From Deltaproteobacteria bacterium (GTDB lineage Bacteria; Desulfobacterota; Desulfomonilia; UBA1062): a DNA stretch of 64,000 bases. The position numbers and the translations under genes are program-made. Location: NCBI GenBank assembly GCA_018433085.1, contig JAHDRW010000011.1, positions 55,224 to 119,223 on the forward strand, read 5' to 3'. The notes below the pieces were generated by a model. That model was not told the DNA's origin. It saw nothing but the letters and a program-made list of their open reading frames with translations, and did no database searches. Of this stretch, positions 5,205-52,022 are shown one piece after another; the stretch's first letter is position 1, and each line of letters starts with the position of its first letter.

Positions 5205-5530
5205 AAGGATCGTATAGCACAAAAACCAGGGGATAAAAATTTGAATAAATCTGCGAGCAGGGGGTTAAGTAAACCCGGATCGTGACGATAGAAATAAATA
5301 GGTTCTTCAAGATTCATTCCCCGTAGAACCTCCTCATATGTTCGCAGGTCAAAAAGGCCTGCTTTTTTTTTGCCGTTTTCCAGCACCCCTGACGGCACGC
5401 TCCGCCTTATGCCCGAAGAACAATCGCGCAGGCATCCATTTTCAGCGTGGAAAATCGACACCATTCCTCCATGTCAATACAAACATACAAATTTATTTAA
5501 AGTTTGCCATTCAACTCAGGAAATCTATCC

Positions 5531-5559
5531 TTGACAAACCCTTTTGATGCATTATAGAA
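5531..5559 (+). promoter_or_regulatory. Sigma70-type promoter for tRNA-fMet: TTGACA (5531..5536), 17-nt spacer, TATAGA (5554..5559)
   Basis: Consensus -35 hexamer with exact 17-nt spacing to a TATAGA -10, about 19 nt upstream of the mature tRNA 5' end. Confidence 0.4.
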
Positions 5560-5577
5560 GACTCTACAATCAAATGA

Positions 5578-5654
<77 letters not shown>

Positions 5655-6036
5655 AATTTATCTTGTTAATCCTAATCCTAAGACTTATCATTCCGGATAT
5701 CCCCTGAAACAGTGGTGCCTCTTCTTGTTGAGATGAATTACCTCGCCGGTCATCTGTTGTCAGGAGTATCTGAGGAGCCAGCCGTTCATCGACAAGCTCT
5801 TTCTGCACGGAGCTGATAAAAGCCCTAATTTTCACTCAACATTTTTGCACGTTTCAAAAAATCATTCAACAGAGCTTACGGAACTATGATCAGCATAGCA
5901 CTACAGCAGCAAGGTGGAGGTATAAGAAGATAGGCCCTGTATCTTCGACGAGAGCAGCGCCCAGCAGTGCCGCTCTGATGCGAGAAGCGAGCCATGGCAG
6001 GGTTCTGTTATTTCCTTTGAAAAAGCCAATACATCC

Positions 6037-6080
6037 TTGACAGACCGTCTCTTGTATTATATAAGACTGACCGGTCAGTC
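6037..6080 (+). promoter_or_regulatory. Promoter (TTGACA, 17 nt, TATAAG) with an overlapping perfect 16-bp palindrome GACTGACCGGTCAGTC (6065..6080): candidate autoregulatory TetR operator
   Basis: The -35 hexamer lies at 6037..6042 and the -10 at 6060..6065. The palindrome starts at the last -10 base and covers the predicted TSS. A GGAG RBS precedes the TetR ATG at 6109. Confidence 0.45.
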
Positions 6081-6108
6081 ATCATAGAATGGAGTACAGG
6101 GCAATCAC

Positions 6109-7125
6109 ATGACCGGAAAACGTGTCATTCTTGAAAAATCAGGCGGCAGGCGGATTTCGTTTTACGCTGAAGTCGGAAGTTATTTTACGGCAGAAGGGGA
6201 TTTCCATGAGGCCGCCTTTCGCTCCAGCCTGAAAGATCGGCTCTTCGAGGCCGGCGGCGGGGACCAATCCGACAATGCGCGTCTCGATGCGCAGGGGAAG
6301 TGGCTTTCTTCATATCTCCAGGATATTCTCGCCTATCTCCTTGAAAAAGACATGGCTCCGGCCGCGGTCCAACTCTCCGCCGCCGCCATGGACGAGGCCG
6401 GAAAGATGGGGGTGACCAGGGTCGTGCTTCCGCCGCGGCTCCTCGGTGACATCCTGCGGTCAATCTCGCCGGCGGCACCGGAGAAGCCCCAGCACCGTCA
6501 GTCCGCGGATGAAAAGAGGCGCATGATCTATTCCGCCGCGCTCAAGGTTTTCTCCGAGGAAGGCTACCACCAGGCAACCATGGAGAAGATTGCCGCACTC
6601 TCGGGCGTGGCCAAGGGCACGGTATACACCTATTTCAAAAGCAAGGAAGATCTTCTGGACCAGCTTCTGGAGGAATATTATCAGGAAATCGTCAAAAGGA
6701 TCAGCGCGATCTGCGGCAAGGAGACCGACATACTCCAGCAGATCCGCGAGCTGATCGTGTTCTGGGTGCACTTTATCGAGGCAAATCCTCTTGTCTATCG
6801 CCTCATTCAGAGCGAGGCGATATTCCAGCGGCCCGGGGGCAAGACCATGTTCTACGACTACATCGTCTCGCACCTCCCAATGCTCAAGGAGCGCATCGTT
6901 GCCTTGAATCGCGAGCATCGGCTGAAGACCACGAGCTTTTATCCCACCTTCTACGGGGCGCTCGGCTTCATCGACGGCGTTGCCCAGAGATGGTTCCGCT
7001 GCCAGATGGATTATCCCCTGACCGACGAGATCCCCGTTATCCTTGAGGTTCTTCTGAACGGGTTCGTCGGCGAGCACAACAGCAACGCCAGCTATTCTTC
7101 CCCGCCGGAGGCCGAAGACGGGTGA
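6109..7125 (+). CDS. TetR/AcrR-family transcriptional regulator with an unusual ~140-aa N-terminal extension
   Basis: The TetR HTH (IYSAALKVFSEEGYHQATMEKIAALSGVAKGTVYTYFKSKEDLL) begins near residue 150. The promoter/operator and RBS geometry favour the 6109 start. Internal in-frame Met codons (for example at 6346 or 6388) remain alternative starts. Confidence 0.65.
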   Translation: MTGKRVILEKSGGRRISFYAEVGSYFTAEGDFHEAAFRSSLKDRLFEAGGGDQSDNARLDAQGKWLSSYLQDILAYLLEKDMAPAAVQLSAAAMDEAGKMGVTRVVLPPRLLGDILRSISPAAPEKPQHRQSADEKRRMIYSAALKVFSEEGYHQATMEKIAALSGVAKGTVYTYFKSKEDLLDQLLEEYYQEIVKRISAICGKETDILQQIRELIVFWVHFIEANPLVYRLIQSEAIFQRPGGKTMFYDYIVSHLPMLKERIVALNREHRLKTTSFYPTFYGALGFIDGVAQRWFRCQMDYPLTDEIPVILEVLLNGFVGEHNSNASYSSPPEAEDG

Positions 7126-7295
7126 GAGGGAATGGACACGGTCGGGGTGACGACGCAACACTGACAAGGATGCCCCCGTCAGGGGGGCGACGCCGGAAAG
7201 GGCGGCTCCTGTGCCGGCACTGCCATGCCGGCACGATCATGGAGACAGTCCCTGTACCGGCGCCGACCCGATGACGGTACAGCATACACTACTGA

Positions 7296-9026
7296 ATGAA
7301 AGGATACCCGATTATGCAAAAGGAGGAAACAGGAATTTTCGGCAAGGCCAAGGGCAGGAGGGTAGGACCTCAAGGTGCGGACGGTGTGCACGCTTCACAG
7401 TGGTATCCCGCGATGCACCCGGGACGGTCACAGGTGCCGTTCCTGCGTTCTCCCCGGGCGATTACCGGGCACATGAACGCCAGAATCCGCGCGATATGGC
7501 ATGCGAGTGACTACCAGGGCAAGGATTTCAGCCCCTTCGAGGTCTCGTCCATACCGAGCAAGCACAAGCTCGCCCAGGTGCTGGCCTGCGGTCTGAAGGC
7601 CGCAGTGGCGACCTACTCACAGCACTGGCAGGGCATGTATCTTGACTGGACCTTCAACCATCACATCGAGGAGGCCTTTTCGAAATTCGGTATCATGGCG
7701 AATTCGGAAAAGTTCGTGAAAAACGCATTCGCTACCGTGGTGCTCTTCAATACCGGTTATGCCGGAGTGTTCATGGACATGCTCAAAAGCCGGCGCCGTC
7801 TTCTCCCGCCCAGTATGGAGAGCCTCGAAAACCTCGACATGGGCACCTTCGAGCACAACTTGAGGAGCTCGGTCGGCGCGGTGCTCGGAGGCGAGTACGG
7901 GGTGAACGTCATCCGGTGCTCTCTGGCGAAGCCCCTGGTGGCAGAGGCGAACAGGCCGGGCTATGAGGCTCTGCGCGGCGTGGCTTCAGTGGAGGGCATG
8001 GACCCGAAGGCCTCCATCACCTGTATCCTGCAAATCGGGCTCAAGCAGTCCGAAGACCGCGCCAGTTTCGACCAGGAGATGATGGACCTCGCGGCCGCCA
8101 AGATCATCGAGCGCAAGAGCGAACGGCGCAACGCGGATTTATCGCGCCAGGTCCCGGTGGTCGTCATGTCGCGCTATTTTCTCTCCGTGAACCGGGAGCT
8201 GCGAAAGGCCGGGCTGCACGGCATCGTCAAGACCCTGGTGATCGAAGGGAACACTCCCCCGGGCAAGACCATGCTTGCATCCATGAGGGATTGCATAGGG
8301 GACGGGCTCAGGAAGTGCTATGACGACATCCTTGCGGCATATCCGGCCAATCTGGCCGACAGCGGCACCGATCTGGACCTCGGCACGTACCGCGACATGG
8401 CGAAGCTCGCGTGCGACCTCGGACTGAAGGTGCTCAAGCCACGCGAAGACGGACACAAGATGCTCTTCATCTATATCGACATGGAGGCCCTCCAGAAAAA
8501 GGGCATCCCGATCGATGTCGCGGAGCAGACAGCGGGCAGCGCCATTCAGGCCGGGCTCAACTCCGTGCATCTCGATGGGACCACGAATGTACCGGACGAG
8601 CAGGACCTGCTTTACGGCGCCTTCTGTATGACCGGCCCGATCCACTCGGCCGAGCTCCTGGATACGGACGATCAGCTCAAGCGAGGGTGGGGCCAGGGAT
8701 TCTGGAACATCCTTGCGCCGGAGCTGCCGCCGACCAACAAGATGCTCGCCCTTATCGCCGTCTCGGCCAAGAGCGAGCAGGATGCCTTTATCGCCGAGAT
8801 ACAGGCATTGAACGAGCGGAAATCGGTCAACGAGATCTTCTGGTACAAGACCTGGAACCATCCGCAGGGAAAGCGTCTGGACATCCCTCAATGGGTATCC
8901 TATGCCCATGTGCTCGACGTGCTCCCGATTCCCGGTAACTCCATTGCCCATGCGGAAGAGCCTATCCCGGAGCACCTGCCCGAAGATCACCCCCTGACCA
9001 GGGAGTTCAGGCAGATGATTAAGTGA
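7296..9026 (+). CDS. Hypothetical protein (576 aa) with no recognisable motif; start uncertain
   Basis: Long ORF with coding-like composition, ended by a rho-independent terminator. An AAGGAGG lies just inside the 5' end, so the true start may be further downstream (for example the ATG at about 7470). Confidence 0.5.
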   Translation: MKGYPIMQKEETGIFGKAKGRRVGPQGADGVHASQWYPAMHPGRSQVPFLRSPRAITGHMNARIRAIWHASDYQGKDFSPFEVSSIPSKHKLAQVLACGLKAAVATYSQHWQGMYLDWTFNHHIEEAFSKFGIMANSEKFVKNAFATVVLFNTGYAGVFMDMLKSRRRLLPPSMESLENLDMGTFEHNLRSSVGAVLGGEYGVNVIRCSLAKPLVAEANRPGYEALRGVASVEGMDPKASITCILQIGLKQSEDRASFDQEMMDLAAAKIIERKSERRNADLSRQVPVVVMSRYFLSVNRELRKAGLHGIVKTLVIEGNTPPGKTMLASMRDCIGDGLRKCYDDILAAYPANLADSGTDLDLGTYRDMAKLACDLGLKVLKPREDGHKMLFIYIDMEALQKKGIPIDVAEQTAGSAIQAGLNSVHLDGTTNVPDEQDLLYGAFCMTGPIHSAELLDTDDQLKRGWGQGFWNILAPELPPTNKMLALIAVSAKSEQDAFIAEIQALNERKSVNEIFWYKTWNHPQGKRLDIPQWVSYAHVLDVLPIPGNSIAHAEEPIPEHLPEDHPLTREFRQMIK

Positions 9027-9501: not shown

Positions 9502-10494
9502 CTATGGGTTGATCCTCGACCCGATCCCCTTGATCCGGTCGATCGCCTCCTGAACCGTACGGTCCAGCAATTCCTGAACCGATGGGATGTCGTGGATCAG
9601 ACCCACAGACTGACCGACCATCATGGGCGCAAGGTCCACATCGCCCGTTTCCCAGGCCTTGGCGATCCGGTCTCCGGTGATGAGCGGGAGGATGCCTTCG
9701 AGGCCGCCGCCGTCCGCCTCGACCTGGAGGACGGCCTCCACATTCTTGTTTCTCAAGGCCCTGGCCTGGAGATGAATCGATTTGCAGATGAGTGCGGTCT
9801 CGTGTTCCTGCCGCTTGATGAGCTCGTTTTTGATGTTTTCGTGGATGTTGCATTCCTTTGTCGCCACGAAACGGCTCGCCATCATAATGCCCTGTGCGCC
9901 GAGCATGAGAGCCGCGGCAAGCGATCTTCCGTTGACCATGCCGCCCACCGTGACCACGGGCAGATTGACCTCCTCGAGGATCCTCGGGGTCAGTACCATG
10001 GAGGTGACATCGTCGTCCAGAGGATGGCCGCCTTCCTCGATACCTGCGGCATAGATACCGTCGTAACCGGCTTTCTCGGCATGGATCGCGTGACGGACAG
10101 CGCCGACTTTGTGAAACAGCTTCACTCCCGCTTTTTTAAGCATCTCGATGTATTCCATACCGCATGCCTTGTCCACCGGTGCGCCGGAAACCTCCACGCC
10201 GGCCACCTGCTCTTCGGCGCAGACCTTGAGATACATCTTGTAATGTTCGGCCGTGATGCGCACAGAGGGAAGGATCGTCACGCCCACCATAAAGGGCTTG
10301 TCCGTCATCTTTCGCGTTTTGCCAATAGCGGCCCGGAAGTCGGTTTCCGTGTCGTAATTCGCAGCGGTGATATTGCCCATACCGCCCGCGTTTGATATTG
10401 CCGCACAGAATTCCGGTTTGCAAAGCCACATCATGGATCCGCAGATGATAGGGTACTCAATGCCGAACATCTCGGTGATGGCAGTTTTTATCAT
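9502..10494 (-). CDS. NMO-family flavoprotein (nitronate monooxygenase / enoyl-ACP reductase FabK-like, TIM barrel)
   Basis: N-terminus MIKTAITEMFGIEYPIICGSMMWL, a GGMGN motif and a long TIM-barrel body. The start was moved to ATG at 10494, which has a GGAGA RBS. The track's upstream 99 codons are AT-rich leader. Confidence 0.75.
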   Translation of the reverse strand: MIKTAITEMFGIEYPIICGSMMWLCKPEFCAAISNAGGMGNITAANYDTETDFRAAIGKTRKMTDKPFMVGVTILPSVRITAEHYKMYLKVCAEEQVAGVEVSGAPVDKACGMEYIEMLKKAGVKLFHKVGAVRHAIHAEKAGYDGIYAAGIEEGGHPLDDDVTSMVLTPRILEEVNLPVVTVGGMVNGRSLAAALMLGAQGIMMASRFVATKECNIHENIKNELIKRQEHETALICKSIHLQARALRNKNVEAVLQVEADGGGLEGILPLITGDRIAKAWETGDVDLAPMMVGQSVGLIHDIPSVQELLDRTVQEAIDRIKGIGSRINP

Positions 10495-10750
10495 AATATT
10501 CTCCTTAACAGAATAATTTGATGGAACCACCTTCCCCGGGAAACATCTTTCATAATTTCTAAGCCTTTGCTGTAACCAAGTCAATTCAAAAAAGGTTGTA
10601 ATATAATAATACAATATCAATATAAAACGAAATATCATTGACACACGGTTCGAAAAGGTTGTCCTGATGCCGGGAAAACCGCTTTCAGAAAGGGTTTGGA
10701 GGCATGAAGAAGGGTGGTCCTCAAGGTGCAAAAAAAATTCAATGATTGTG

Positions 10751-10801
10751 TTGACAAGGGGCAAATAATTGGTTATATGAAATTCCATCAATTGATGGAA
10801 T
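10751..10801 (+). promoter_or_regulatory. Promoter (TTGACA at 10751..10756, -10 TTATAT/TATATG) followed by a perfect 20-bp palindrome ATTCCATCAATTGATGGAAT (10782..10801) and a repeated half-site ATGGAATCAAT (10821..10831)
   Basis: AT-rich divergent intergenic region upstream of the HMGCS-like/thiolase operon. The palindrome sits immediately downstream of the -10, the expected position for a TetR-type operator. Confidence 0.45.
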
Positions 10802-10953
10802 CAATCAATGTAACGTATGGATGGAATCAATAATTGTAATGAAGCGTGAGAGATGCATGATGGACATTTCCCTCCCCGGGGCGATGTCGGTCTGTTTTAG
10901 CTTCACCTGATCAGCGTCAGGGGTTGCACGACAAATAAAAAGGAGGATCTGGC

Positions 10954-12420
10954 ATGGCAGGAATCACTTCCTTCGGGGGATACATACCCCGTTACCGGCT
11001 CAGCAGGATGGTTATCGTCCAGAACATGGCCTGGTATTTTCCCGTGATCATGGCGGTCGCAGGCGGTGAAAAGGCGGTGGCCAACTGGGATGAAGACTCG
11101 GTGAGCATGGCCGTTGCCGCTGCATACGACTGTATGGCCGGGCACGACAGGAAAGGGCTCGACGCCCTCTATTTCGCATCGACCACGATGCCATTCGCCG
11201 ACAGGCTCAATGCGGGTATCGTCGCAGCCGCGCTCAACATGCGTGAAAACGGCGTGTCGAATGCGGACTTTGCATCCTGCATGAAGGCAGGCACAACCGC
11301 AATGATCTCCGCCCTGGACTCGGTGCAGGCCGGGTCGCGGAAAAACGTGCTGGTGGCGGCATCCGACCAGCGGCGCACGAAAATGGCCACCATGTTCGAG
11401 ATGTTCTACGGCGATGGCGCCGCTGCGGTGCTCATCGGCAACGAGGATGTCGTCGCCGATTATCTGGGCAGCTACTCCATCAACTGCGACTTCGTGGATC
11501 ACTACCGGGGGCAGACCAAGGAGTTCGATTACGGCTACGAAGAGCGCTGGGTCAGGGATATCGGCTACGGAAAGGTCATCCCGGAGGCGATATCCGGGTT
11601 CCTTGCGCAGAGCGGCATGAAGATCGGGGACTTCGCCAAGGTAATCTATCCCTGCTATTTCGGGGGCACACATAAGGCCATTGCCGCAAGGCTCGGAATC
11701 GAAAAGGAAAAGGCGCAGAACAATCTACACGCAGTCTGCGGCGATACGGGAACGGCGCATCCCCTGGTGATGCTGGTCGCCGCACTTGAAGAGGCAAATC
11801 CCGGCGACAAGCTCCTGGTGGCGGGTTTCGGTCAGGGCTGCGATGTGCTGGCCTTCGAGGTGACCGATAAAATCAAGGATATGAAACCGCGCACCGGCAT
11901 CAAGGGATCTCTAGCCAATCGGGTGGATCTGACGAACTACCAGAAGTTCGCCAAATTCAGAGACCTCATCACCGCAGACCTGGGCATCCGCGGAGAGGCC
12001 AACCCGAATACGTCGCTCACCGTGCTCTGGCGGAAGCGTAAAATGCTGCTCGGCCTGGTGGGAGTGCGGTGCAAGAAGTGCGGGACTCCGCAGTTCCCCG
12101 TATATCCGACCTGCGTGAATCCCAAGTGCTGGAGCGTGAACGACTTCGAGGACTATGAGTTCTCCGACAAGGAGGCGAAGATCCTCATGTTCACCGGCGA
12201 TATGCTCTCCCCCTCAGTCGACCCTCCGGCGGTATACGGGCTGATCGCATTCGAGGGCGGAGGCAGGACCATGTTCGACTTCACGGACTGCGATCTCAAC
12301 CAGATCAAGGTGGGCATGAAGACCAGAATGTCGTTCAGAAGGAGGCAGACCGACAACATGCGGGGATTCACCGGATACTTCTGGAAGGCTGTCCCTCAGG
12401 TGGAAGGAGGCGATAAATAA
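10954..12420 (+). CDS. HMG-CoA-synthase-like condensing enzyme (archaeal type) fused to a C-terminal DUF35 zinc-ribbon/OB-fold domain
   Basis: The N-terminus MAGITSFGGYIPRYRLS matches the archaeal HMGCS signature (GxxGYGxYIPRYRI). A catalytic-Cys region SCMKAGT is present. The C-terminal ~130 aa carry CKKCGTPQFPVYPTCVNPKC (rubredoxin-like Zn ribbon) followed by an OB-fold, as in DUF35/BbsA. A GGAGG RBS precedes the ATG. Confidence 0.65.
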   Translation: MAGITSFGGYIPRYRLSRMVIVQNMAWYFPVIMAVAGGEKAVANWDEDSVSMAVAAAYDCMAGHDRKGLDALYFASTTMPFADRLNAGIVAAALNMRENGVSNADFASCMKAGTTAMISALDSVQAGSRKNVLVAASDQRRTKMATMFEMFYGDGAAAVLIGNEDVVADYLGSYSINCDFVDHYRGQTKEFDYGYEERWVRDIGYGKVIPEAISGFLAQSGMKIGDFAKVIYPCYFGGTHKAIAARLGIEKEKAQNNLHAVCGDTGTAHPLVMLVAALEEANPGDKLLVAGFGQGCDVLAFEVTDKIKDMKPRTGIKGSLANRVDLTNYQKFAKFRDLITADLGIRGEANPNTSLTVLWRKRKMLLGLVGVRCKKCGTPQFPVYPTCVNPKCWSVNDFEDYEFSDKEAKILMFTGDMLSPSVDPPAVYGLIAFEGGGRTMFDFTDCDLNQIKVGMKTRMSFRRRQTDNMRGFTGYFWKAVPQVEGGDK

Positions 12421-13628
12421 TGGCTACGGGAATCAGAGACAAGGTCGCGATTATCGGAATGGGGTGCTCGCAGTTCGGCGAGCGCTGGAACGACGGTCCG
12501 GAAGAGCTCATGGTCGAGTCCTTCACGGAATGCCTTCAGGACGCCGGCATCGAAAAGACGGACATCCAGGCCGCGTGGTTCGGATCCTGCTTCGACGAGG
12601 TCGGCGTCGGGAAGAGCGCTTTGCCGGCCTCCATGTCCCTGAGGCTCCCCAACATATCGGTCACCCGGGTGGAGAACTACTGCGCCAGCGGCACCGAGGC
12701 GTTCAGGGGGGCGGTCTATGCCGTGGCGTCCGGGGCATACGACATCGCTCTCGCCATCGGGGTGGAGAAGCTCAAGGACATCGGCTACGGCGGACTGCCC
12801 GAGTTCAGTACCGCCATGGGCACGTTGAACCAGCTCTGGATGGCGAACTTCACCGCCCCGGGCGGCTTCGCCATGCTGGCGACCTCTTATGCGGCGAAAT
12901 ACGGCATCGACATGAGTGAGCTCAAGCGGGCAATGGCCCACGTGTCGGTCAAGAGCCATGCGAACGGGGCGCTCAATCCAAAGGCGCATCTGAGAAAGCC
13001 GGTGACCGAAGAGCAGGTACTCAATGCCCCTCAAATCGCTTATCCTCTGGGACTCTTCGACTGCTGCGGCGTGAGCGACGGTTCTGCATGCGCCATCGTC
13101 ACCACCCCGGAGATCGCAAAGAGCCTCGGGAAAAAGGATCTGGTCACGGTAAAGGCCCTGCAGCTCTCTCTGAGCAATGGCACCGAGTTTGCCTTCGACT
13201 GGGACGGGGACCACTTTATCACCACATCCAAGGCGAGTTCGGAGGCCTACAAGGAGGCGGGCATCAAGAATCCGCGGGGGGAGATCAGCATGATGGAGGT
13301 GCACGACTGCTTCTCCATAACCGAGCTGGTGACCATGGAGGACCTGCACATCTCCGAGAGGGGAAAGGCCCCCAGAGATGTGATGGACGGGTTCTTCGAC
13401 CTGAGGGGCGGCGGGGTTCCCTGCCAGGTGGACGGCGGGCTGAAGTGCTTCGGTCACCCCATCGGGGCCTCAGGCCTGAGAATGCTCTACGAGATGTACC
13501 TGCAGCTCCACGGCAGGGCCGGCCAGAGGCAGCTCAAGGATCCGAAGTTCGGGCTCACCCACAACCTCGGCGGGTTTCCCTTCATGAACGTGTGCAGCGT
13601 CGCCATCATCGGGAAACAGGATGCATAG
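12420..13628 (+). CDS. SCPx-type (SCP2) thiolase / acetyl-CoA C-acyltransferase
   Basis: N-terminus MATGIRDKVAIIGMGCSQFGERW and active-site Cys in ENYCASGTEAF, typical of SCP2 thiolases that partner HMGCS/DUF35. The ATG overlaps the upstream stop (TAATG). Confidence 0.8.
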   Translation: MATGIRDKVAIIGMGCSQFGERWNDGPEELMVESFTECLQDAGIEKTDIQAAWFGSCFDEVGVGKSALPASMSLRLPNISVTRVENYCASGTEAFRGAVYAVASGAYDIALAIGVEKLKDIGYGGLPEFSTAMGTLNQLWMANFTAPGGFAMLATSYAAKYGIDMSELKRAMAHVSVKSHANGALNPKAHLRKPVTEEQVLNAPQIAYPLGLFDCCGVSDGSACAIVTTPEIAKSLGKKDLVTVKALQLSLSNGTEFAFDWDGDHFITTSKASSEAYKEAGIKNPRGEISMMEVHDCFSITELVTMEDLHISERGKAPRDVMDGFFDLRGGGVPCQVDGGLKCFGHPIGASGLRMLYEMYLQLHGRAGQRQLKDPKFGLTHNLGGFPFMNVCSVAIIGKQDA

Positions 13629-13660
13629 GAACAGATCCTTTCATAAAAAGGAGGTGAGAT

Positions 13661-14110
13661 ATGGCTGATTTATCCAAGGTAGGCACCGAGTACACCCCCA
13701 TTGTCTGGGAGGTGGAGCGGGGCAAGATCAGGGAGTTCGCGAAGGCCATCGGCGATTTCAACCCGATCTATCTTGACCGCGAGGCTGCGGTGAAGGCGGG
13801 ATATAAAGACACGCCGGCGCCGCCGACGTTTCTGACCGTGCCCATGATGTGGTGCGGAAAGATGCCGGACTTCATCAACGATCTGAAGATCAACTTCATG
13901 ATGGTGCTTCACGGTGAGGAAGAATACGAATACTACCGGGAGATCTATCCGGGCGATGTGATCACGGGCACTCCGAAGGTGACCAAGATGGAGGAAAAGA
14001 CGAGCAAGTCCGGCTCCAAAATGGACATGATCACCCTTGAGGTGCTCTACATCAACCAGAAGGGCGAAGAGGTCGCCAAGGCCAGATCGCTGCTCGTCGA
14101 AAGGAAATAG
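13661..14110 (+). CDS. MaoC-like hot-dog protein: non-catalytic N-terminal half of hydratase 2
   Basis: Motif GDFNPIY lacks the catalytic His of the hydratase-2 signature. The fold is a hot-dog fold. An AGGAGG RBS is present. Confidence 0.7.
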   Translation: MADLSKVGTEYTPIVWEVERGKIREFAKAIGDFNPIYLDREAAVKAGYKDTPAPPTFLTVPMMWCGKMPDFINDLKINFMMVLHGEEEYEYYREIYPGDVITGTPKVTKMEEKTSKSGSKMDMITLEVLYINQKGEEVAKARSLLVERK

Positions 14111-14119
14111 GGGGCAGTC

Positions 14120-14554
14120 ATGATACAGGAAAAATACTTTGAAGATATAAACGTGGGCGACACGGTCATCGAACTGGTGAAGGGACCTCTGCAGAAGCTG
14201 CAGCTCGTCATGTACGCAGGGGCCTCGGGCGATTTCAATCCCCTGCACACGGACGACGACTTTGCGAAGGCGGTGGGCATGAAAGACGGCGTGATCGCCC
14301 ACGGCATGTTCATCATGGGCTGCGTGGGTCAGGCCGTCACCGACTGGGTGCCGAAGAAGCGGCTCAAGCGCTACGGTGTGCGATTCGCGGGCATGTCCAA
14401 ACCGGGAAGCACCATTACCATTTCCGGCACGGTCACCGACAAGCGCGTGTCCGATGGAGAGAATATCGTCACCTGCGCCGTGGTGGCCAAGGACGAGCAG
14501 GGTGACGTAAAGGTGAGCGGAAGCTTTGATGCGGCCTTGCCCGGCAAGGCATAG
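14120..14554 (+). CDS. MaoC-like (R)-specific enoyl-CoA hydratase: catalytic hydratase-2 half
   Basis: Complete hydratase-2 motif GASGDFNPLHTDDDFA with the catalytic D and H. Confidence 0.75.
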   Translation: MIQEKYFEDINVGDTVIELVKGPLQKLQLVMYAGASGDFNPLHTDDDFAKAVGMKDGVIAHGMFIMGCVGQAVTDWVPKKRLKRYGVRFAGMSKPGSTITISGTVTDKRVSDGENIVTCAVVAKDEQGDVKVSGSFDAALPGKA

Positions 14555-14583
14555 TGCAGGGAAAGAAGAGGGAGGAATCTATA

Positions 14584-15489
14584 ATGAAAATCGATTTTAC
14601 CGGAAGAGTGGCAATCGTAACGGGTTCGGGGGCCGGTCTGGGCAAATGCTATGCCCTCGAGTTGGCGAAGCGCGGGGCCAAGGTGGTGGTGAACGACCTG
14701 GGCGGTTCCCGTGACGGAAAGGGATCAAGCGATGCCGCAGCGAACAAGGTGGTGGACGAGATCAAGGCCCTGGGCGGCGAAGCGGTACCGAACTACGACA
14801 ACGTGGCCACCGTGGCGGGAGGCGCGAACATCGTGAAGACCGCGGTGGATGCCTTCGGCAAGGTGGATATCGTCATCAACAATGCAGGGATCCTGCGCGA
14901 CAAGTCATTCACCAAGATGGAAGAGGAGAACTGGGACGGCGTGATGAACGTCCACCTGAAGGGCGCCTATTGCGTAACCAGACCGGCCTTTGAAATCATG
15001 AGGGCCAACGGGTACGGCAGGGTGGTGATGACAACGTCGGGAGCCGGACTGTTCGGCAACTTCGGGCAGTCAAATTATGCAGCGGCCAAGATGGGGCTCA
15101 TCGGGCTGACAAACGTGCTCAAGATCGAGGGCGAGAAATACAATGTCAAAACCAATGTGATCGTGCCCGTGGCCGCTTCCCGGCTCACCGAAGACGTGCT
15201 TCCCCCCGAGTTCTTCGAGAAGATGAAGCCCGACTTCGTGACCTCTGCGGTGCTCTATCTGTGCTCGGAGCAGTGCACGGACAACGGGATGATCATCAAT
15301 GCGGCCCTGGGATACTACAGCCGTTCCGCCGTGGTGACGGGCCCCGGTGCCATTCTGTCGGACGGGAAGAGGGTTCCCACGCCCGAGGAGGTTATGGAAA
15401 GCTGGAACAAGATAACGAGCCTTGAAAATCCCAAGTATTTTGGTATGCTGCCTGAGATGTTCGGCGTGCTGGGGCCCGTTCTTCAGTAG
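14584..15489 (+). CDS. SDR-family (3R)-hydroxyacyl-CoA dehydrogenase, homologous to the dehydrogenase domain of multifunctional enzyme 2 / HSD17B4
   Basis: Co-linear similarity to human HSD17B4 residues 1-300: VAIVTGSGAGLGKCYALELAKRGAKVVVNDLGG, NNAGILRD, YSAAK and a C-terminal SCP-less tail. The start was moved to the ATG at 14584, which has a GGAGG RBS. Confidence 0.8.
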   Translation: MKIDFTGRVAIVTGSGAGLGKCYALELAKRGAKVVVNDLGGSRDGKGSSDAAANKVVDEIKALGGEAVPNYDNVATVAGGANIVKTAVDAFGKVDIVINNAGILRDKSFTKMEEENWDGVMNVHLKGAYCVTRPAFEIMRANGYGRVVMTTSGAGLFGNFGQSNYAAAKMGLIGLTNVLKIEGEKYNVKTNVIVPVAASRLTEDVLPPEFFEKMKPDFVTSAVLYLCSEQCTDNGMIINAALGYYSRSAVVTGPGAILSDGKRVPTPEEVMESWNKITSLENPKYFGMLPEMFGVLGPVLQ

Positions 15490-15549: not shown

Positions 15550-16188
15550 ATGGTGAAAACGACACTCGAAAAGGCGAAGAAAGACCCCGAATCGATGAAG
15601 GCGAGGATCCTGGCGGTTGCCAGAAGGATCTTCGGCGAATACGGTTTCCACGGAACCACCATGCGGATGATCGCCAAAGAGGTGGGCATCGACATCTCCA
15701 CGCTCCACTACCACTGGGGAGAAAAGAAGGATCTTTACGAGGCGGTGATCATCGACATCAACAACGATCTGGGGAAGAAGTTCATCGAGGTGGAGCGGAT
15801 CATTCACGGCCGCCCCCTCCAAGAACGGATCGCCATCGGCATCGACACCATGGTGGACTATCTCTTTCTTCATCCCGAGATCTCGAACATGGTGCTGTTC
15901 CGCTATTTCGGAAAGATCAGGCACGAAGAGCCGGTCGATCTCAAGGTGCCCGAGTTCACCATCGATATCGTACGCTCCATGGGGCTCAAGCAGGACAAGG
16001 AAAACATCAGCTTCTCCATGACCGCCGTGCTGACCATCATGAACTCCATTCACAGCTTCATTTCAGGGGAGAACTTCTTCTCCCCCATGGTCACGCAGAA
16101 CAAGGACGAGTACATCACCATTGTGAAAGAGACGCTCAAGGGCATTTTCATCCCTGCGTTCACCCAGGATACGAGCAGGTTCGAATAG
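15550..16188 (+). CDS. TetR/AcrR-family transcriptional regulator
   Basis: N-terminal HTH ARILAVARRIFGEYGFHGTTMRMIAKEVGIDISTLHYHW; about 210 aa. Confidence 0.8.
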   Translation: MVKTTLEKAKKDPESMKARILAVARRIFGEYGFHGTTMRMIAKEVGIDISTLHYHWGEKKDLYEAVIIDINNDLGKKFIEVERIIHGRPLQERIAIGIDTMVDYLFLHPEISNMVLFRYFGKIRHEEPVDLKVPEFTIDIVRSMGLKQDKENISFSMTAVLTIMNSIHSFISGENFFSPMVTQNKDEYITIVKETLKGIFIPAFTQDTSRFE

Positions 16189-16485: not shown

Positions 16486-17628
16486 ATGGAAATCATCCAG
16501 TATACGGACGAACACAGAATGTTCCGGGATTCCGTGAGGAAATTCCTGGAAAAGGAAGTTATACCCCATGTGGAAGAATGGGAAGAGGCGGGTATCACCC
16601 CCCGGAGTGCGTGGAAGAAGCTGGGCGAGCAGGGCTTTCTCGGCATGGGCGTCCCCGAGGAATACGGGGGCCTCGGTGCGGATTTTCTCTACTCCGTGAT
16701 CATGACCGAGGAGATGAGCCGGACCAACCACATGGGTTTATGCACCGCGCTGCACAGTGATATCGTGATCCCCTACATTTTGTCCTACGGTTCCGAGGAG
16801 ATCAAGAAGAAATACCTTCCGGGCTGCGTGTCGGGAGATACCATCGCCGCCGTGGCCATGACCGAGCCCAACACGGGCAGCGACCTGGCCGCCATCCGGA
16901 CCACGGCCGTTGATGACGGCGATCACGTCGTCATCAACGGGCAGAAGACCTTTATCAGTAACGGCATCAACTGCGGGGTCTGCGTGACCGCTGTCCGCGA
17001 TCCCCAGGTGGAAGATCCGTACCGCGCCATCGACCTCTTTGTCATCGAAGAAGGAACACCCGGCTTCGAGAAGGGCAAGCAGATCAAAAAGGTCGGGTGG
17101 CACAGCCAGGATACGGCGGAGCTGTATTTCAGCGACTGCCGGGTGCCCAAGTCAAACCGCCTGGGCGAAAAGGGAACGGGATTTCTGCACCTCATGGAGA
17201 AGCTCCAGCAGGAGCGGCTCATGTGCGCGGTCGGGGCCCAGGCCCTGGCGGAGTACATGCTCGAGATTACACTGGCATACTGCAAGGAGCGCACCGCCTT
17301 CGGGAGGCCTATCTCCAAATTTCAGCACAACCAGTTCGAGCTGGTCGATATGGCCACGGATCTCAAGCTCGGGCGCACCTTCCTGGACAAGCTGATCGTG
17401 GACCACATGGAGGGCAGAAACGTGGTGGTGGAGGTGTCCATGGCCAAGTTCTGGATCACCGAGATGGCGAGCCGGGTGGCGGACCGCTGCATGCAGCTTC
17501 ACGGCGGCTACGGATACTGCGACGAGTATCCCATCTCGCGCGCATGGCGGGACATCCGGGTGACGCGGATCTTTGCGGGGACCAACGAGATCATGCGCCA
17601 GGTCGCGGCCCGCTTCATGGGCCTGTAG
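16486..17628 (+). CDS. Acyl-CoA dehydrogenase
   Basis: ACAD family N, middle and C domains, with the signature region AMTEPNTGSDLAAIRTTA and a C-terminal catalytic-Glu region. An AGGAGA RBS is present. Confidence 0.85.
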   Translation: MEIIQYTDEHRMFRDSVRKFLEKEVIPHVEEWEEAGITPRSAWKKLGEQGFLGMGVPEEYGGLGADFLYSVIMTEEMSRTNHMGLCTALHSDIVIPYILSYGSEEIKKKYLPGCVSGDTIAAVAMTEPNTGSDLAAIRTTAVDDGDHVVINGQKTFISNGINCGVCVTAVRDPQVEDPYRAIDLFVIEEGTPGFEKGKQIKKVGWHSQDTAELYFSDCRVPKSNRLGEKGTGFLHLMEKLQQERLMCAVGAQALAEYMLEITLAYCKERTAFGRPISKFQHNQFELVDMATDLKLGRTFLDKLIVDHMEGRNVVVEVSMAKFWITEMASRVADRCMQLHGGYGYCDEYPISRAWRDIRVTRIFAGTNEIMRQVAARFMGL

Positions 17629-17679: not shown

Positions 17680-18861
17680 ATGGCAGGACCGCTTCAAGGA
17701 ATGAAGATTCTGGATTTCACCACGCTGCTGCCCGGACCTTTCTGTACCATGAATCTTGCCGACATGGGCGCGGAGGTACTAAGGATAACATCCGGCTCCA
17801 GGCCGGATATGGCGGCGTTTGCCCCGCCGTTCTTTCCCGGGACCGACCTGTCCTTTGCCACCGCGTATCTGGGACGGGGAAAACGCTGTCTTGCGCTCAA
17901 CCTGAAGGACGAACGGGCCGTGCGCATCGTGCACCAGCTGCTCAAAGACTATGACATCCTGATCGAGCAGTTCCGCCCCGGCGTCATGGCCAGGTTCGGT
18001 CTCGATTACGAGAGCCTCCGGGAGGTCAATCCCGCGCTGATCTACTGCTCCATCACCGGTTACGGCCAGGACAGCCCCATCAGCAGCCGGGCCGGTCACG
18101 ACATCAACTACCTGGCGCGGTCGGGTCTCATGTCCTACTCCGGAAAAACGGAAACCGGGCCTATGCTCATGGGCATGCAGATCGCGGATGTGGCGTCCGG
18201 ATCGAACAATGCCATGATTGGAATCCTTGCTGCGGTGATCAGCCGCGCGAACACCGACAGAGGCCAGCACGTGGACATCTCCATGACCGACGGTGCGATC
18301 GCCTTCAATGCCCTGGTGGCCGGGGCTTACCTGGTGGACGGCCAGGAGCCCGGGCGCGAGGGATTCCTCTTAAACGGCGGGTCGGTCTACGACTTTTATG
18401 AAACAAAAGACGGCGGATATGTGAGCTTCGGCGGACTGGAGCCGCAGTTCTTCGCCGCCTTCTGCCATGCCATCGGACGTCCGGATCTGATCGAGGGGGG
18501 CGTGGCCCCGCAGGATCTCCACAAGGTCAAGGATGAGGTCCGGTCCGTCATAAAAACCAGGACCCGGGACGAGTGGATGGAAATTTTCGACGATACCGAT
18601 GCATGCGTGGATCCGGTCCTTTCCCTTTCCGAGGCCCTGGATGATCCTCACGCAAAGAAGCGGGGGCTGGTGGTGGAGCTGGAACTCGCCGGAGGTGGTC
18701 ATGTTCGGCAGCTTGCCAGCCCCATCAGGTTCTCTGAGACCAGGCAGGTATACACGAAGGCCGGTGTGCAGGCAGGCGCCCATACCGCAGAGGTGCTCCG
18801 GGATCTGGGTTATTCGGAGAAAGATATCCAGACCCTTGAGAGCGAGGGGCTTTTCCGCTGA
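17680..18861 (+). CDS. Family III CoA-transferase (CaiB/BaiF / alpha-methylacyl-CoA racemase-like)
   Basis: N-terminus LQGMKILDFTTLLPGPFCTMNLADMGAEV and the family-III fold. A GAGGAG RBS is present. Confidence 0.8.
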   Translation: MAGPLQGMKILDFTTLLPGPFCTMNLADMGAEVLRITSGSRPDMAAFAPPFFPGTDLSFATAYLGRGKRCLALNLKDERAVRIVHQLLKDYDILIEQFRPGVMARFGLDYESLREVNPALIYCSITGYGQDSPISSRAGHDINYLARSGLMSYSGKTETGPMLMGMQIADVASGSNNAMIGILAAVISRANTDRGQHVDISMTDGAIAFNALVAGAYLVDGQEPGREGFLLNGGSVYDFYETKDGGYVSFGGLEPQFFAAFCHAIGRPDLIEGGVAPQDLHKVKDEVRSVIKTRTRDEWMEIFDDTDACVDPVLSLSEALDDPHAKKRGLVVELELAGGGHVRQLASPIRFSETRQVYTKAGVQAGAHTAEVLRDLGYSEKDIQTLESEGLFR

Positions 18862-19042
18862 TCAAGGTACATGTTCGTGTCAAACCGCTCGTGCAGAGTG
18901 CGCGGGTAGATCATCCGGTTGCCCCATATTCAAGGGCAGGGTAACGTTTGACGGCACGGAGTTTTAGACGTGCGCAGCCGGGCCGTGAAGAGAGGTGCTT
19001 CAGGGGAAGCGGCACAGCCCTTTTCAAGAGGAGGAAAGTCAA

Positions 19043-19876
19043 ATGAGCGCGAGAAAAGACGAAACCGGTACGGCCGCCGGGCCCTGCCTGAAGGTCGAGA
19101 AAAGCGGACACGTGGCCTGGCTGGTGCTGAACCGGCCCCGGCAGCGCAATACCATGACCCCGGAGTTCTTCGATGAGATCACCAGGCGCTTCGAGGAATT
19201 CGATGCCGATCCGGATGTGCGGGTGGTGGTCATCCGGGCGGAGGGGAAGAGCTTTACCGCGGGTCTGGATCTGGTGGCGGCCCAGGCGCTTCTCGGCGAC
19301 GGGTCGGCCGTGTATCGGGACTGGCTGTACCGGAAGATCAAGCAGCTCCAGGCAAGCATGACAGCCGTCGAAAAGTGCAGGAAACCCGTCATCGCGGCGA
19401 TCCACGGGCACTGCATCGGCGGCGGGGTGGACTTGACCAGCGCCTGCGACATCAGGATCGCGTCAGAGGATGCGGTCTTTTCCATCCGGTAGACGCGCAT
19501 CGCCATCATCGCGGACATCGGAACCCTGCAGCGCCTCCCGTACATCGTCGGGCAGGGCTGGTTCAGGGAGCTGGCGCTTACGGGAAGGGACTTCACCGCA
19601 GGCGAGGCCCTGCAGATGGGATACATCACCCGGCTCTGTCCTGACCGGGACGCATTGATGGAGCAGGCGCGCACGCTCGCCGAAGAGATCGCCGGGCTGT
19701 CCCCGCTGGCCGTACAGGGGGTGAAGGAGGTGGCGAATTACACCCGTGACCACGGACTTCACCAGGGCCTGGAATATGTGGCCCAGAGAAATGCGGCCGT
19801 CGTACCTAATGAAGACATGATCGAGGCGGTCGCGGCCTTTCTCGAAAAGCGGACACCGCAGTTCAAGGGCAGATAG
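19043..19876 (+). pseudogene. ECH1-like delta3,5-delta2,4-dienoyl-CoA isomerase (crotonase family) interrupted by one in-frame TAG at 19490..19492
   Basis: A single frame encodes CRKPVIAAIHGHCIGGGVDLTSACDIRIASEDAVFSIR*TRIAIIADIGTLQRLP ... SPLAVQGVK ... AAFLEKR. It is co-linear with ECH1 (CPKPVIAAVHGGCIGGGVDLVTACDIRYCAQDAFFQVKEVDVGLAADVGTLQRLP). The TAG aligns with the catalytic Glu (GAG to TAG, one substitution). Confidence 0.7.
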
Positions 19877-20018
19877 GAAAGTGTGCCCGGTAAGGGGCGA
19901 AAGGAGGTGGAATACAAAAGCAGAGAAGGTGACAGCCATAGTCTTGCTTTAAGCAGCACCTTTGCAATGGATTTCAGCATTTGTGACGGTACGGAAGATC
20001 AATCACAAGGAGGGAGAT

Positions 20019-21698
20019 ATGTCCTTTGAACGATTATGGCACAAATCGTATGTGCCGGGCGTACCCACGGATTTCGAGGTGAAAAGGATCACCATGGCGG
20101 AAAGGCTCAGCAAGATTGCCGCGAAATATCCGGACCGTGTGGCCTTTATCTACATGGGGAAGAAGATCACCTATCGTGAGCTGGAAGGACTGGTAAACCG
20201 ATTCACGAGAGCCTTGGTCGATATCGGGGTCAAGGAGGGCGATAAGGTGGGAGTGCTTCTGCCCAACATCCCCCAGACGGTCATCGCCAACCATGCCATT
20301 TACCGTGCCGGGGCGGTCACGGCCATGAACAATCCTCTCTACGCCGAGCTGGAGCTGACGCATCAGCTCCACGACTCGGACGCCACGGTGCTGATCACGC
20401 TGGACCTGCTCCTTCCCCGGGCGCTCAAGATAAAGCCGGGGACGAAGATCAGGACCATCATCACCTGCCACATCAGCGACTACCTCCCATTTCCCAAGAA
20501 GCAGCTCTTTCCCTATGTGAAGAAAGGCATGTTCCGGAAGGTGGAGCCCCAGCCGGATGTCTACCAGTTCATGGATCTCATAGGCAAATATCCCGATGGG
20601 CCGGTGGAAAACAAGGCCCGGTGGGATGCGCTGGCCGCGCTGCTCTACACGGGGGGTACCACGGGCGTCAGCAAGGGGGCAATGCTGACCCATGGCAACA
20701 TCTCCTCGGTCGTCCAGCAGTTCACGGCCTGGTTTCCGGATCTCCAGGATACATACGAGAACCTCCTGGGCATCTATCCGATATTCCATTCCGCAGGATA
20801 CTCGGTGGGCCAGAACCTCCCGATATGGAACGGCTGGTGCTGCACGCTCGTGCCAAGGCCCGAGCCGGGTGTCATCGTGGAAATGCTCTCCAAGTTCAAA
20901 CCCACCTTTCTCCCTGGGGTGCCCACCATCTTTACCGGGCTGCTGAAGAACGAAAAATTCCGGAAGATGAACCTCTCGCATATCAAAGGCTACTTCGGCG
21001 GGGCCGCGCCGCTTCCCGAAGATACCCTGAGCCAGCTCAAGCAGCTCCACGGCGCGATCATCTACGACGTCTACGGGGCGACCGAGAATACGGCATTCGC
21101 AACCGTGACACCCTGGGGCGGGAAGGTCAAGATCGGAACCGTGGGAGTGCCGCTTCCCGGTACGGATATCAAAATTGTGGATCTGGATACGGGTACTCGC
21201 GAGCTTCCTCCGGGAGAGGCCGGGGAAATCTGCATCAAGGGCCCTCAGGTCATGACCGGATACTACAAGAAACCGGAGGAAACAGCGCTGACCCTGAGGG
21301 ATGGATGGTTTTACACCGGCGACATCGGGTTCCTGGATGAAGACGGCTATCTGACCATTTCGGATCGCAAGAAAGACATGATCTGCGCCAGCGGCTTCAA
21401 TATCTATCCCAAGGAGGTCGACGAGATACTCTTCAGCCATCCCAAAATCCTGGAGGCATGCTGCATCGGAGTTCCGGACGAGTACCGCGGGGAGACGGTG
21501 AAGGCCTATGTCGTCGTGCAGCCGGGAGAGACGCTCACGGAGCAGGACGTGATCTCGTACTGCAAGGGGAAAATGACCGGCTACAAGGTGCCGACACAGG
21601 TGGCTTTCATTGATCAGCTCCCCAAGAGCACCATCGGCAAGATCATGCGGCGTGAGGTCAGAGACATGGATGCGAAAAAAAAGGAAGGGAGATTATGA
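20019..21698 (+). CDS. Long-chain acyl-CoA ligase (AMP-binding, FadD-like)
   Basis: AMP-binding motif LLYTGGTTGVSKGAML and C-terminal DRKKDMI...GFNIYP. The start was moved to the ATG at 20019, which has a GGAGGGAG RBS. Confidence 0.85.
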   Translation: MSFERLWHKSYVPGVPTDFEVKRITMAERLSKIAAKYPDRVAFIYMGKKITYRELEGLVNRFTRALVDIGVKEGDKVGVLLPNIPQTVIANHAIYRAGAVTAMNNPLYAELELTHQLHDSDATVLITLDLLLPRALKIKPGTKIRTIITCHISDYLPFPKKQLFPYVKKGMFRKVEPQPDVYQFMDLIGKYPDGPVENKARWDALAALLYTGGTTGVSKGAMLTHGNISSVVQQFTAWFPDLQDTYENLLGIYPIFHSAGYSVGQNLPIWNGWCCTLVPRPEPGVIVEMLSKFKPTFLPGVPTIFTGLLKNEKFRKMNLSHIKGYFGGAAPLPEDTLSQLKQLHGAIIYDVYGATENTAFATVTPWGGKVKIGTVGVPLPGTDIKIVDLDTGTRELPPGEAGEICIKGPQVMTGYYKKPEETALTLRDGWFYTGDIGFLDEDGYLTISDRKKDMICASGFNIYPKEVDEILFSHPKILEACCIGVPDEYRGETVKAYVVVQPGETLTEQDVISYCKGKMTGYKVPTQVAFIDQLPKSTIGKIMRREVRDMDAKKKEGRL

Positions 21699-40612: not shown

Positions 40613-40924
40613 ATATACCCTCCTAATTGTTAGTGACACTTGCTCAGCCCCGGGTTCCATGCCCCGGGCAGCATCCGCAGGCGGAAACGAGGCCGAAGCT
40701 GAATGAGTATTCATTTTCTATAATCCTTATCCGCTCTTTCTGTCAATATAATCGTCCCTTGCCGGAAAAAGGGGCAGTGTTCACTGGTTCATGTTTCGTC
40801 GGGAAACAGGCACGAGCCCTTTCTTGGGTGTCTTTCAAGGGTTGAGAATAATTGCCTTTGCCATCGAGAGGCATTCTGGTATATATTTTTCACCCAATAT
40901 ATGTCCAGGAGGCGAAAGGTTTAT

Positions 40925-42892: not shown

Positions 42893-43098
42893 CCGTGTTC
42901 TACAGAAGGCTCTCGCATTATTGATACTCGCAGTTGTTGCGGCGTGATTCTTTTTCATGGGCGCTCGCGTGAAGAGCCCCGGTTTCCGGCCTGCCGTATT
43001 CACACACGGCCGAGGTGGACGGCTTCAGGGTTCTGGCAAGGGCGGGAGTTCCGGAGATGGATGATCCCCCCGCAGCCGGGGGAGTGAGAGGAGGGGAT

Positions 43099-43977: not shown

Positions 43978-44016
43978 TGACATGCAATCCGTGAGAACCA
44001 AGGAGGAGGAAACCGT

Positions 44017-45075: not shown

Positions 45076-45099
45076 CCGAAAAGATGTGGAGGAGCGTTC

Positions 45100-51992: not shown

Positions 51993-52022
51993 TATTTTTA
52001 TTAAAGATTTTCCAAAAGAAGG

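Follow-up and report, generated by a model that had tools for sequence, protein, structure and literature searches.

A conserved gene cluster of a Desulfomonilia bacterium predicted to encode (R)-specific beta-oxidation around a thiolase and an HMG-CoA synthase-like::DUF35 protein lacking the catalytic tetrad

We analysed a 64,000-nucleotide stretch of DNA (the window) from Deltaproteobacteria bacterium (Desulfobacterota, Desulfomonilia, UBA1062; assembly GCA_018433085.1, contig JAHDRW010000011.1, positions 55,224 to 119,223), in which five consecutive genes, here g1 to g5, encode an HMG-CoA synthase (HMGS)-like protein (HMG, 3-hydroxy-3-methylglutaryl) fused to a DUF35 module, a thiolase, two hot-dog-fold proteins, and a short-chain dehydrogenase/reductase (SDR). 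It is likely, in our judgement, that g1-g5 constitute one TetR-repressed catabolic operon for hydration, oxidation, and thiolysis via (3R)-hydroxyacyl-CoA intermediates, with g1 as a non-condensing partner. In this pathway g3 and g4 would form a HadAB-type heterodimeric hydratase-2 that hydrates 2-enoyl-CoA, with g4 being catalytic and g3 shaping the substrate pocket; g5, an NAD-dependent MFE-2-type dehydrogenase, would oxidise the (3R)-alcohol, and g2 would cleave the resulting 3-oxoacyl-CoA by means of its Cys, HDCF, and GHP motifs. The g1 protein would condense nothing; its HMGS-like domain and DUF35 module are predicted to be an obligate structural partner of g2, and probably also a docking hub for the dehydrogenase. 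A downstream acyl-CoA dehydrogenase (ACAD) resembling the long-chain enzyme LCAD (first step), a family-III protein of the racemase type, and a FadD-like ligase would complete the pathway.

The open reading frames (ORFs) of the window were assigned by Pfam and NCBIfam profile searches, sequence searches of the PDB, and motif inspection, and relatives were drawn from 67 loci encoding a relative of g1, found by scanning one genome per species. The five co-directional ORFs lie on the + strand exactly where a first-pass annotation of the same DNA had placed them: g1 at 10954-12420 (488 amino acids), g2 at 12420-13628, g3 at 13661-14110, g4 at 14120-14554, and g5 ending at 15489. The overlap reported between the g1 stop and the g2 start is likewise present (TAATG, one nucleotide shared between TAA and ATG), so g1 and g2 are translationally coupled; the g2 start is preceded by a ribosome-binding site, GGAAGGAGG. 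For g5, which has a formal alternative start at GTG 14554, the true start is likely ATG 14584, as this codon sits behind a ribosome-binding site, GAGGGAGGA, and homology to MFE-2 begins there. The g1-g2-g3-g4(-g5) order is kept in about 40 of the 67 loci of other genomes, and the ratio of nonsynonymous to synonymous substitution rates (dN/dS) against the closest relatives is 0.03-0.13 for every gene, indicating strong purifying selection, with g1 having the lowest values within the cluster (0.034-0.066). Given this synteny and constraint, chance does not account for the block. A seven-gene form, in which an ACAD and a family-III protein precede g1-g5, recurs across the Desulfomonilia and Syntrophales, flanked by genes that are unrelated between genomes.

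The g1 protein comprises an HMGS-like domain (approximately residues 1-340) and a DUF35 Zn-ribbon/OB-fold (approximately 358-483); that the two are fused in one polypeptide, as first proposed, is evident both from Pfam (a KAS-III/HMGS-type N-terminal part, then zf-ChsH2 and OB_ChsH2_C) and from the PDB matches. The N-terminal domain is of the archaeal-HMGCS/PhlA clade and not of the FabH type. Its first PDB match is PhlA (2e-31; 113 bits), followed by the HMGCS of the archaeal complex (8.5e-23; 84 bits) and then MucA, with FabH (27 bits) and bacterial MvaS far lower; the DUF35 part is matched at 2.8e-13. Both NCBIfam HMGCS equivalogs score below their cutoffs (the archaeal-type model 194.5 bits against 244, the other 134.9 against 353), and the FabH models reach 29-40 bits. 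An AlphaFold2 model of g1 (predicted local distance difference test score 83.7, predicted template-modelling score 0.89) has as its top Foldseek matches PhlA, the HMGCS of Methanothermococcus thermolithotrophicus (TM 0.89, root-mean-square deviation 2.6), and MucA. Profiles, PDB searches, and Foldseek thus all favour PhlA/HMGCS over a FabH-type KAS III, the alternative that the first-pass annotation had named as the one to watch for.

At the positions of the HMGS catalytic tetrad (E82/C114/H238/N270 in M. thermolithotrophicus numbering), g1 carries T77, M110, P233, and D264, and the tetrad is absent in all 65 full-length homologues taken from the relative loci. The first position is Thr in 65/65, the Cys position is occupied by Met, Leu, Ile, Thr, or Gln, the third position is Pro in 60/65, and the Asn position is Asp or Glu in 60/65; the Zn-ribbon cysteines of g1 (373, 376, 387, and 392) are invariant among the homologues. 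Cys109 was considered as a shifted nucleophile and rejected, being Gly, Ser, or Ala in 25 of the 65 sequences, and Cys234 was judged unlikely to be a new catalytic residue, being lost in the Variovorax and Sphingomonas homologues. The initial description of g1 as a condensing enzyme is therefore abandoned. The closest published parallel is the fused HMGS-DUF35/ACAT complex of Pseudomonas fluorescens, whose HMGS domain likewise lacks the tetrad while its ACAT keeps Cys, HDxF, and GHx; it synthesises neither HMG-CoA nor acetoacetyl-CoA, and cleaves acetoacetyl-CoA in dependence on the HDxF histidine (Liao et al., Nat Commun 2026, PMC12960953). The g1/g2 pair resembles it in architecture and motifs, having an HMGS-like::DUF35 fusion beside an ACAT-type thiolase, a lost tetrad, retained thiolase Cys/HDxF/GHx residues, and no polyketide synthase or nonribosomal peptide synthetase context.

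The g2 protein is an SCP2-superfamily thiolase that is catalytically complete as judged by its motifs. It scores 683 bits with NCBIfam PRK06157 (cutoff 403) and contains CxS (NYCASG), HDCF (VHDCF), and GHPIGASG; HDCF is kept in g2 and in 60/60 scored thiolase homologues. The designation as an SCP2-type thiolase is accordingly retained at the level of the superfamily, although the nearest relatives are the ACATs of archaeal complexes (7yvy, 8e-55; 6esq_A, 1.7e-53; BbsB follows at 1.9e-43) and not SCPx itself. With the tetrad of g1 lost, the fused P. fluorescens complex inactive for synthesis, and the motifs of g2 complete, we read g1 as a probable non-catalytic partner of the g2 thiolase rather than a condensing enzyme.

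We regard it as very unlikely that g1 is itself catalytic, whether as an HMGS-type condensing enzyme or in the reverse cleavage of a 3-hydroxy-3-alkylglutaryl-CoA, as proposed for LrcC. The latter protein, from the limonene ring-cleavage operon of a Syntrophobacteraceae metagenome-assembled genome (MAG), shares the HMGS-like plus DUF35 Zn-ribbon architecture of g1 (PF08541 and PF12172); thiolase and SDR genes come after it, and it is annotated as a 3-isopropenyl-3-hydroxyglutaryl-CoA synthase operating in reverse (PMC12583861). The high conservation of g1, with its invariant His, Cys, and acidic residues and lowest dN/dS in the cluster, would also suit an enzyme, but the whole E-C-H-N tetrad is replaced in every homologue, and neither neighbouring Cys109 nor Cys234 is conserved throughout. 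HMGS chemistry moreover includes a thioester hydrolysis, which makes its reversal unfavourable. An archaeal quadruple tetrad mutant, like the natural P. fluorescens fusion, makes no HMG-CoA (Liao et al. 2026, PMC12960953). LrcC, too, may serve as the partner of a thiolase instead of cleaving C-C bonds, all Desulfobacterales homologues examined being without the HMGS tetrad. Caution is warranted with HMG-CoA synthase labels, which JGI annotation gives to many homologues of g1.

Similar modules are known from complexes of quite different function. All three modules are homologous to the thiolase/HMGCS/DUF35 complex of M. thermolithotrophicus (6esq/6et9), at the values given above for each; that complex, however, has an active HMGCS and serves the anabolic mevalonate pathway, whereas in the window the tetrad is gone, the HMGS-like and DUF35 parts are fused, and the context is catabolic. 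The parallel drawn in the first-pass annotation with this archaeal channelling complex consequently stands for structure and falls for function. The Friedel-Crafts acyltransferases PhlACB and MucABC, to which the N-terminal domain of g1 is most similar in sequence and fold, likewise combine a dead HMGS-like subunit with a thiolase-like subunit and DUF35. PhlC and MucB, however, lack HDxF, use phenolic or tetramic-acid acceptors, and belong to biosynthetic clusters (PMC12960953), whereas HDCF is present in g2, whose neighbours are beta-oxidation genes.

The genes g3 and g4 each encode a single hot-dog protein, and the earlier interpretation as a split hydratase-2 of which only the second gene keeps the Asp/His motif was borne out. 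The g3 protein (PF13452, 118 bits; PF22622, 32.9 bits) resembles HadA or the N-terminal half of MFE-2 hydratase-2 and is non-catalytic by motif, reading GDFNPIY with Tyr in place of His. Its PDB matches are the N-terminal halves of the fused MaoC proteins 5i7n and 4v12, then HadC/HadA and ChsH1/2, and it also matches the N-domain of MFE-2 hydratase-2. The g4 protein (PF01575, 84.8 bits) is HadB-like/MaoC and the catalytic half of the predicted (R)-specific enoyl-CoA hydratase; it carries YAGASGDFNPLH (GDFNPLH) with the hydratase-2 Asp/His pair, the motif being identical in 37/39 homologues. HadB subunits are its best structural relatives (4rv2_B, 8.5e-19). Because scores for the HadA and HadB equivalogs do not reach their cutoffs (70 against 180 and 77 against 203), g3/g4 are not orthologues of the HadA/HadB that depend on acyl carrier protein (ACP).

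The arrangement of one catalytic and one non-catalytic subunit in a heterodimeric hot-dog (R)-hydratase is shared with mycobacterial HadAB/HadBC and with the steroid system ChsH1-ChsH2-Ltp2, in which DUF35 is, as may be the case in the window, a staple for a thiolase-fold partner. HadAB acts on acyl-ACP. In ChsH2, DUF35 is fused to the hydratase, whereas the window has it joined to the HMGS-like domain, beside an intact thiolase; Ltp2 is an aldolase that lacks the thiolase Cys.

The g5 protein is probably an NAD-dependent MFE-2-type (3R)-hydroxyacyl-CoA dehydrogenase, the (3R) specificity following from family membership. Its PDB matches are the MFE-2 enzymes of Candida (2et6, 6e-128), Drosophila (3oml, 1e-93), and human (1zbq, 4e-90), together with 1gz6 (2e-89), and it is collinear end to end with their dehydrogenase domains (residues 11-310 in the 3oml alignment), in agreement with its original description as co-linear with MFE-2/HSD17B4. 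The Ser/Tyr/Lys catalytic residues are kept, as are TGSGAGLG (TGxxxGxG), YAAAK (YxxxK), and VVVNDLGG, which is common to MFE-2 enzymes; in SDRs, an Asp where beta-2 ends points to NAD and not to NADP. Closer inspection thus finds the catalytic residues of both g5 and g4 in place, and with one catalytic half in the split hydratase and an MFE-2-type dehydrogenase, the proposal of beta-oxidation via (R)-hydroxyacyl-CoA is upheld.

Control of the operon by TetR through a palindrome, postulated in part in the first-pass annotation, is a well-supported inference from the sequences. The TetR-family regulator encoded directly downstream of g5 (15550-16188, + strand; PF00440, 56.9 bits) is a probable repressor acting via a predicted operator at 10782-10801, a 20-bp perfect palindrome, ATTCCATCAATTGATGGAAT, 153 bp upstream of g1. 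The palindrome lies directly downstream of a promoter-like site, TTGACA-N17-TATATG (10753-10781). With up to two mismatches allowed, 893 kb of related loci contain TCCATC-N4-GATGGA 19 times, and 17 of these occurrences are located 160-450 bp upstream of g1 homologues. It is present in every locus with a detected TetR gene, as well as in several short loci whose sequence stops before the TetR position is reached, and loci that begin with the ACAD and family-III genes have neither palindrome nor TetR gene. One related locus (L010) has a second copy directly in front of its TetR gene; no second copy was found within the window. A generic scan for sigma-70 promoters and terminators gave no enrichment over shuffled sequences.

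Fusions in relatives suggest that the g1 protein may be the scaffold on which a multi-enzyme complex is built. Related proteins whose g1 domains are 58-59% identical bear at the C terminus either an SDR (62% identical to g5) or an SCP2 domain. In locus L072, such an HMGSL-DUF35 fusion and a 402-amino-acid thiolase adjoin a 709-amino-acid protein (5271-7400) with the complete MFE-2 order of SDR, hydratase-2, and SCP2. We accordingly envisage that g1-g2 would form a complex with g5 and g3/g4. Scattered among the beta-oxidation genes of the same locus are small genes (7457-7945 and 10399-10902) that belong to the '23S rRNA intervening sequence protein' family.

Similarity to the peroxisomal MFE-2/SCPx/AMACR system extends to the SDR family, the hydratase-2 motif, the HDCF-type thiolase, and a family-III protein with racemase-type residues, and, among relatives, to the SCP2 fusions and the full SDR-hydratase-SCP2 protein. 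The window differs in having separate polypeptides, a hydratase split in two, and an ACAD instead of an acyl-CoA oxidase; its thiolase, compared with SCPx, is closer to archaeal ACATs and has a predicted need of a pseudo-HMGS/DUF35 partner.

The module also occurs outside the Desulfobacterota. In Variovorax paradoxus the order is SDR, an unsplit MaoC protein (YRLSGDLNPLH), HMGSL-DUF35, ACAT, ACAD, and a family-III protein, the first four of which are found in Sphingomonas paeninsulae. Upstream of the V. paradoxus module (locus L068, 87-3489; CP063167) are two adjacent ACADs and then a second family-III protein with a racemase-type motif, GHDLNYIA, which the family-III protein within the module lacks; solute-binding proteins of the TTT family flank both. 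In a more distant subfamily (approximately 50% identical), the HMGSL-DUF35/thiolase pair is accompanied by crotonases and FabG-like SDRs, as it is in lrcB-lrcE of the limonene ring-cleavage operon, and a Novosphingobium plasmid carries a homologue, approximately 30% identical, within a steroid-type cluster. The g1/g2 pair therefore looks like a portable thiolase unit that in the window is joined to peroxisome-type (R)-specific partners.

Downstream of the TetR gene, all on the + strand, are further genes of acyl-CoA metabolism. The first encodes the LCAD-like ACAD (16486-17628; assigned by Pfam, with PDB matches to 2pg0 at 4e-146 and human LCAD at 4e-101), which is syntenic with g1-g5 in many loci. 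The second encodes a protein with the family-III CoA-transferase fold and racemase-type residues (17680-18861; PF02515, 335 bits), consistent with the AMACR-like protein described there previously. Its GHDINYL (His), IADVASG (Asp), and EPQFFAA segments align with the Mycobacterium tuberculosis racemases FAR (2g04, 7e-59) and MCR (1x74, 2.5e-54), and by these motifs it is only probably an alpha-methylacyl-CoA racemase. An ECH1-like (dienoyl-CoA-isomerase-like) crotonase follows at 18995-19876, in which an in-frame TAG (19490-19492) stands in place of a Glu codon; loci L001, L003, and L009 have GAG at this site (reading FSIRETRIAIIADIGTLQRLP, FSIRETRIAIIADIGT). The dN/dS of both halves of the interrupted gene is still low (0.05-0.20), and the TAG reflects either an error in sequencing or a nonsense mutation that arose recently. 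Next are a FadD-like acyl-CoA synthetase (19962-21698), with an AMP-binding domain and scores of 400-487 bits to long-chain fatty-acid-CoA ligase models, each of them sub-cutoff, and a crotonase-family enoyl-CoA hydratase (21695-22498), whose scores to PRK05864 (234 bits) and EchA19 (163 bits) are both below cutoff. The last is a long ACAD with a C-terminal PF12806 domain (22595-24474) that is split near 23090 by a frameshift or an assembly indel: the N-terminal domain is in the frame of 22595-23479 and the rest in that of 23089-24474, with the break near GEWG/GTMCLTEPE. The ECH1-like isomerase and ACADs reported downstream are thus present, but with the isomerase gene carrying a stop codon and the second ACAD frameshifted.

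We favour the catabolic direction because g5 carries an NAD-type signature, the P. fluorescens complex performs thiolysis only, the partners are an ACAD and a ligase, and the genus is syntrophic. The opposite possibility, which we consider unlikely, is that the operon encodes an anabolic or reversible machine. It would then be the bacterial equivalent of the fatty-acid synthase complex of archaea, which is DUF35-mediated and ACP-independent (thiolase/DUF35, (R)-ketoacyl-CoA reductase, and MaoC dehydratase), and would elongate acyl-CoAs with a FabK-like protein as enoyl-CoA reductase. All steps are chemically reversible, and syntrophs run such pathways both ways. The reductase could be the product of an NMO/FabK-like flavoprotein gene (9502-10494, - strand; likely start ATG 10494 with AAGGAGA before it), a candidate enoyl-thioester reductase by PF03060 (154.6 bits) that scores 220.7 bits with the FabK model (cutoff 453). 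Its gene is divergent from g1 and shares with it a regulatory region of 459 bp, but adjoins g1 only in the closest clade (loci L001-L006), whereas the conserved partners are ACAD, racemase/CoA-transferase, and acyl-CoA ligase. In Sulfolobus acidocaldarius, one stable fatty-acid synthase complex unites thiolase/DUF35 with an SDR that is (R)-specific and with a MaoC hydratase, the classes encoded in the window (bioRxiv 2024.07.05.601840); that complex is synthetic, has an NADPH-specific SDR, and contains no HMGS-like domain. The VVVNDLGG of g5 is instead the NAD-type signature of catabolic MFE-2, and the fused P. fluorescens complex carries out thiolysis without condensation. A more specific form of the proposal has the dead-HMGS::DUF35 protein as the hub of a reversible acyl-CoA machine (thiolase, (R)-dehydrogenase, and hydratase-2) that could elongate without ACP, using the FabK-like reductase, in a syntroph or lithotroph; alternatively, the strongly conserved HMGS-like domain could have a newly acquired catalytic or ligand-binding site. 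Taken together, we hold these two to be improbable.

Between the FabK-like gene and a FadR-like TetR gene (6109-7125) lies an ORF of 576 amino acids (7296-9026) that has no Pfam or NCBIfam match and is conserved in two of the closest loci (L001 and L003; 93-94% identity, dN/dS 0.08-0.12).

Several observations weigh against a catabolic operon with a non-catalytic g1. A complex with g5 and g3/g4 is deduced from fusions in relatives, and Sulfolobus assembles these four classes of enzyme into an anabolic complex, with a FabK-like reductase divergently transcribed here. The constraint on g1, which is the highest in the cluster, and its many invariant polar residues fit a scaffold or an unrecognised activity. 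The family-III protein scores slightly higher to the CoA-transferase SUGCT (1e-62), which has GYD at the GHD position, and module-adjacent family-III homologues elsewhere have GHD or GYD, often with Tyr for His. Finally, two accessory genes of the window, the ECH1-like crotonase and the long ACAD, are disrupted.

As to the substrate of the predicted catabolic operon, the racemase-type protein, the LCAD-like ACAD, and the analogy to MFE-2/SCP2 lead us to a tentative guess, held with less than even confidence, of 2-methyl-branched or bulky acyl-CoAs. The flanks of the seven-gene module in the Desulfomonilia, clustered and annotated for substrate-specific neighbours, proved unrelated (glycosyltransferase, phosphoesterase, ABC transporter). 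A role in polyhydroxyalkanoate metabolism was rejected, the corresponding synthase not being among the scanned ORFs of the window.

Benzylsuccinate-type substrates, among those first suggested, find no support. A Bbs-like pathway for the oxidation of arylsuccinyl- or alkylsuccinyl-CoA arising from fumarate addition to hydrocarbons follows a similar logic (family-III enzyme, ACAD, hydratase, SDR, and a thiolase with DUF35), and BbsB is a moderate PDB match to g2 and BbsD a weak one to g5. The equivalog scores, however, are far under their cutoffs (BbsB 147.9 bits against 750, BbsA 17.4 against 250), the hydratase is of the MaoC type and not a BbsH-type crotonase, and g5 is MFE-2-type, far nearer to 2et6 than to BbsD. 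In addition, a glycyl-radical enzyme is not among the scanned ORFs of the window, and the module is present in aerobic Variovorax and Sphingomonas; we consider such a pathway extremely unlikely.

The best matches, with 94-98% amino-acid identity, come from the MAGs Deltaproteobacteria bacterium LM3-B1m and SM3-B3m, Syntrophaceae UBA1062, and Phox-21, the last of which is Ca. Phosphitivorax anaerolimi. That genus includes members that metatranscriptomics showed to be syntrophic butyrate oxidisers, with several paralogues for each step of beta-oxidation. The cluster may indicate that Ca. Phosphitivorax-like syntrophs living in anaerobic digesters can carry out such catabolism, with branched-chain acids as possible substrates. 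A look-up of the exact g1 sequence matched no record, and searching the literature on Desulfatibacillum, Syntrophus, and Smithella for the cassette, and on anaerobes for AMACR with SCP2 and MaoC, yielded nothing specific.

The components and a fused thiolase complex were already known, and the advance is a modest one, consisting of the conserved cassette context and the corrected 'HMG-CoA synthase' label. In the study of the P. fluorescens complex, 1,001 HMGS-ACAT-DUF35 loci without a biosynthetic cluster were counted, and an 'evolutionary intermediate' was proposed from the assayed P. fluorescens representative (PMC12960953). Whereas that complex was published without a pathway, the pair in the window lies inside a conserved (R)-specific beta-oxidation cassette. 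This would provide a pathway context for a widespread bacterial complex, as the thiolase unit of a self-contained cassette in the window and related loci of the Desulfobacterota and Proteobacteria.

Elsewhere in the window, regions among 39464-40714, 43015-46940, 47701-48540, and 61937-63994 contain a further ACAD, a further crotonase, a TRAP-T transporter (TAtT/DctP/DctM), and, at the window end, the selenocysteine elongation factor SelB. A tRNA-Leu(CAA) gene (51906-51992) is followed by a phage-type integrase (52023-53129, - strand), and a stretch within 51906-58000 has a low GC content (0.47-0.50 against approximately 0.58-0.61); the 51906-58000 region looks like an island integrated at the tRNA.

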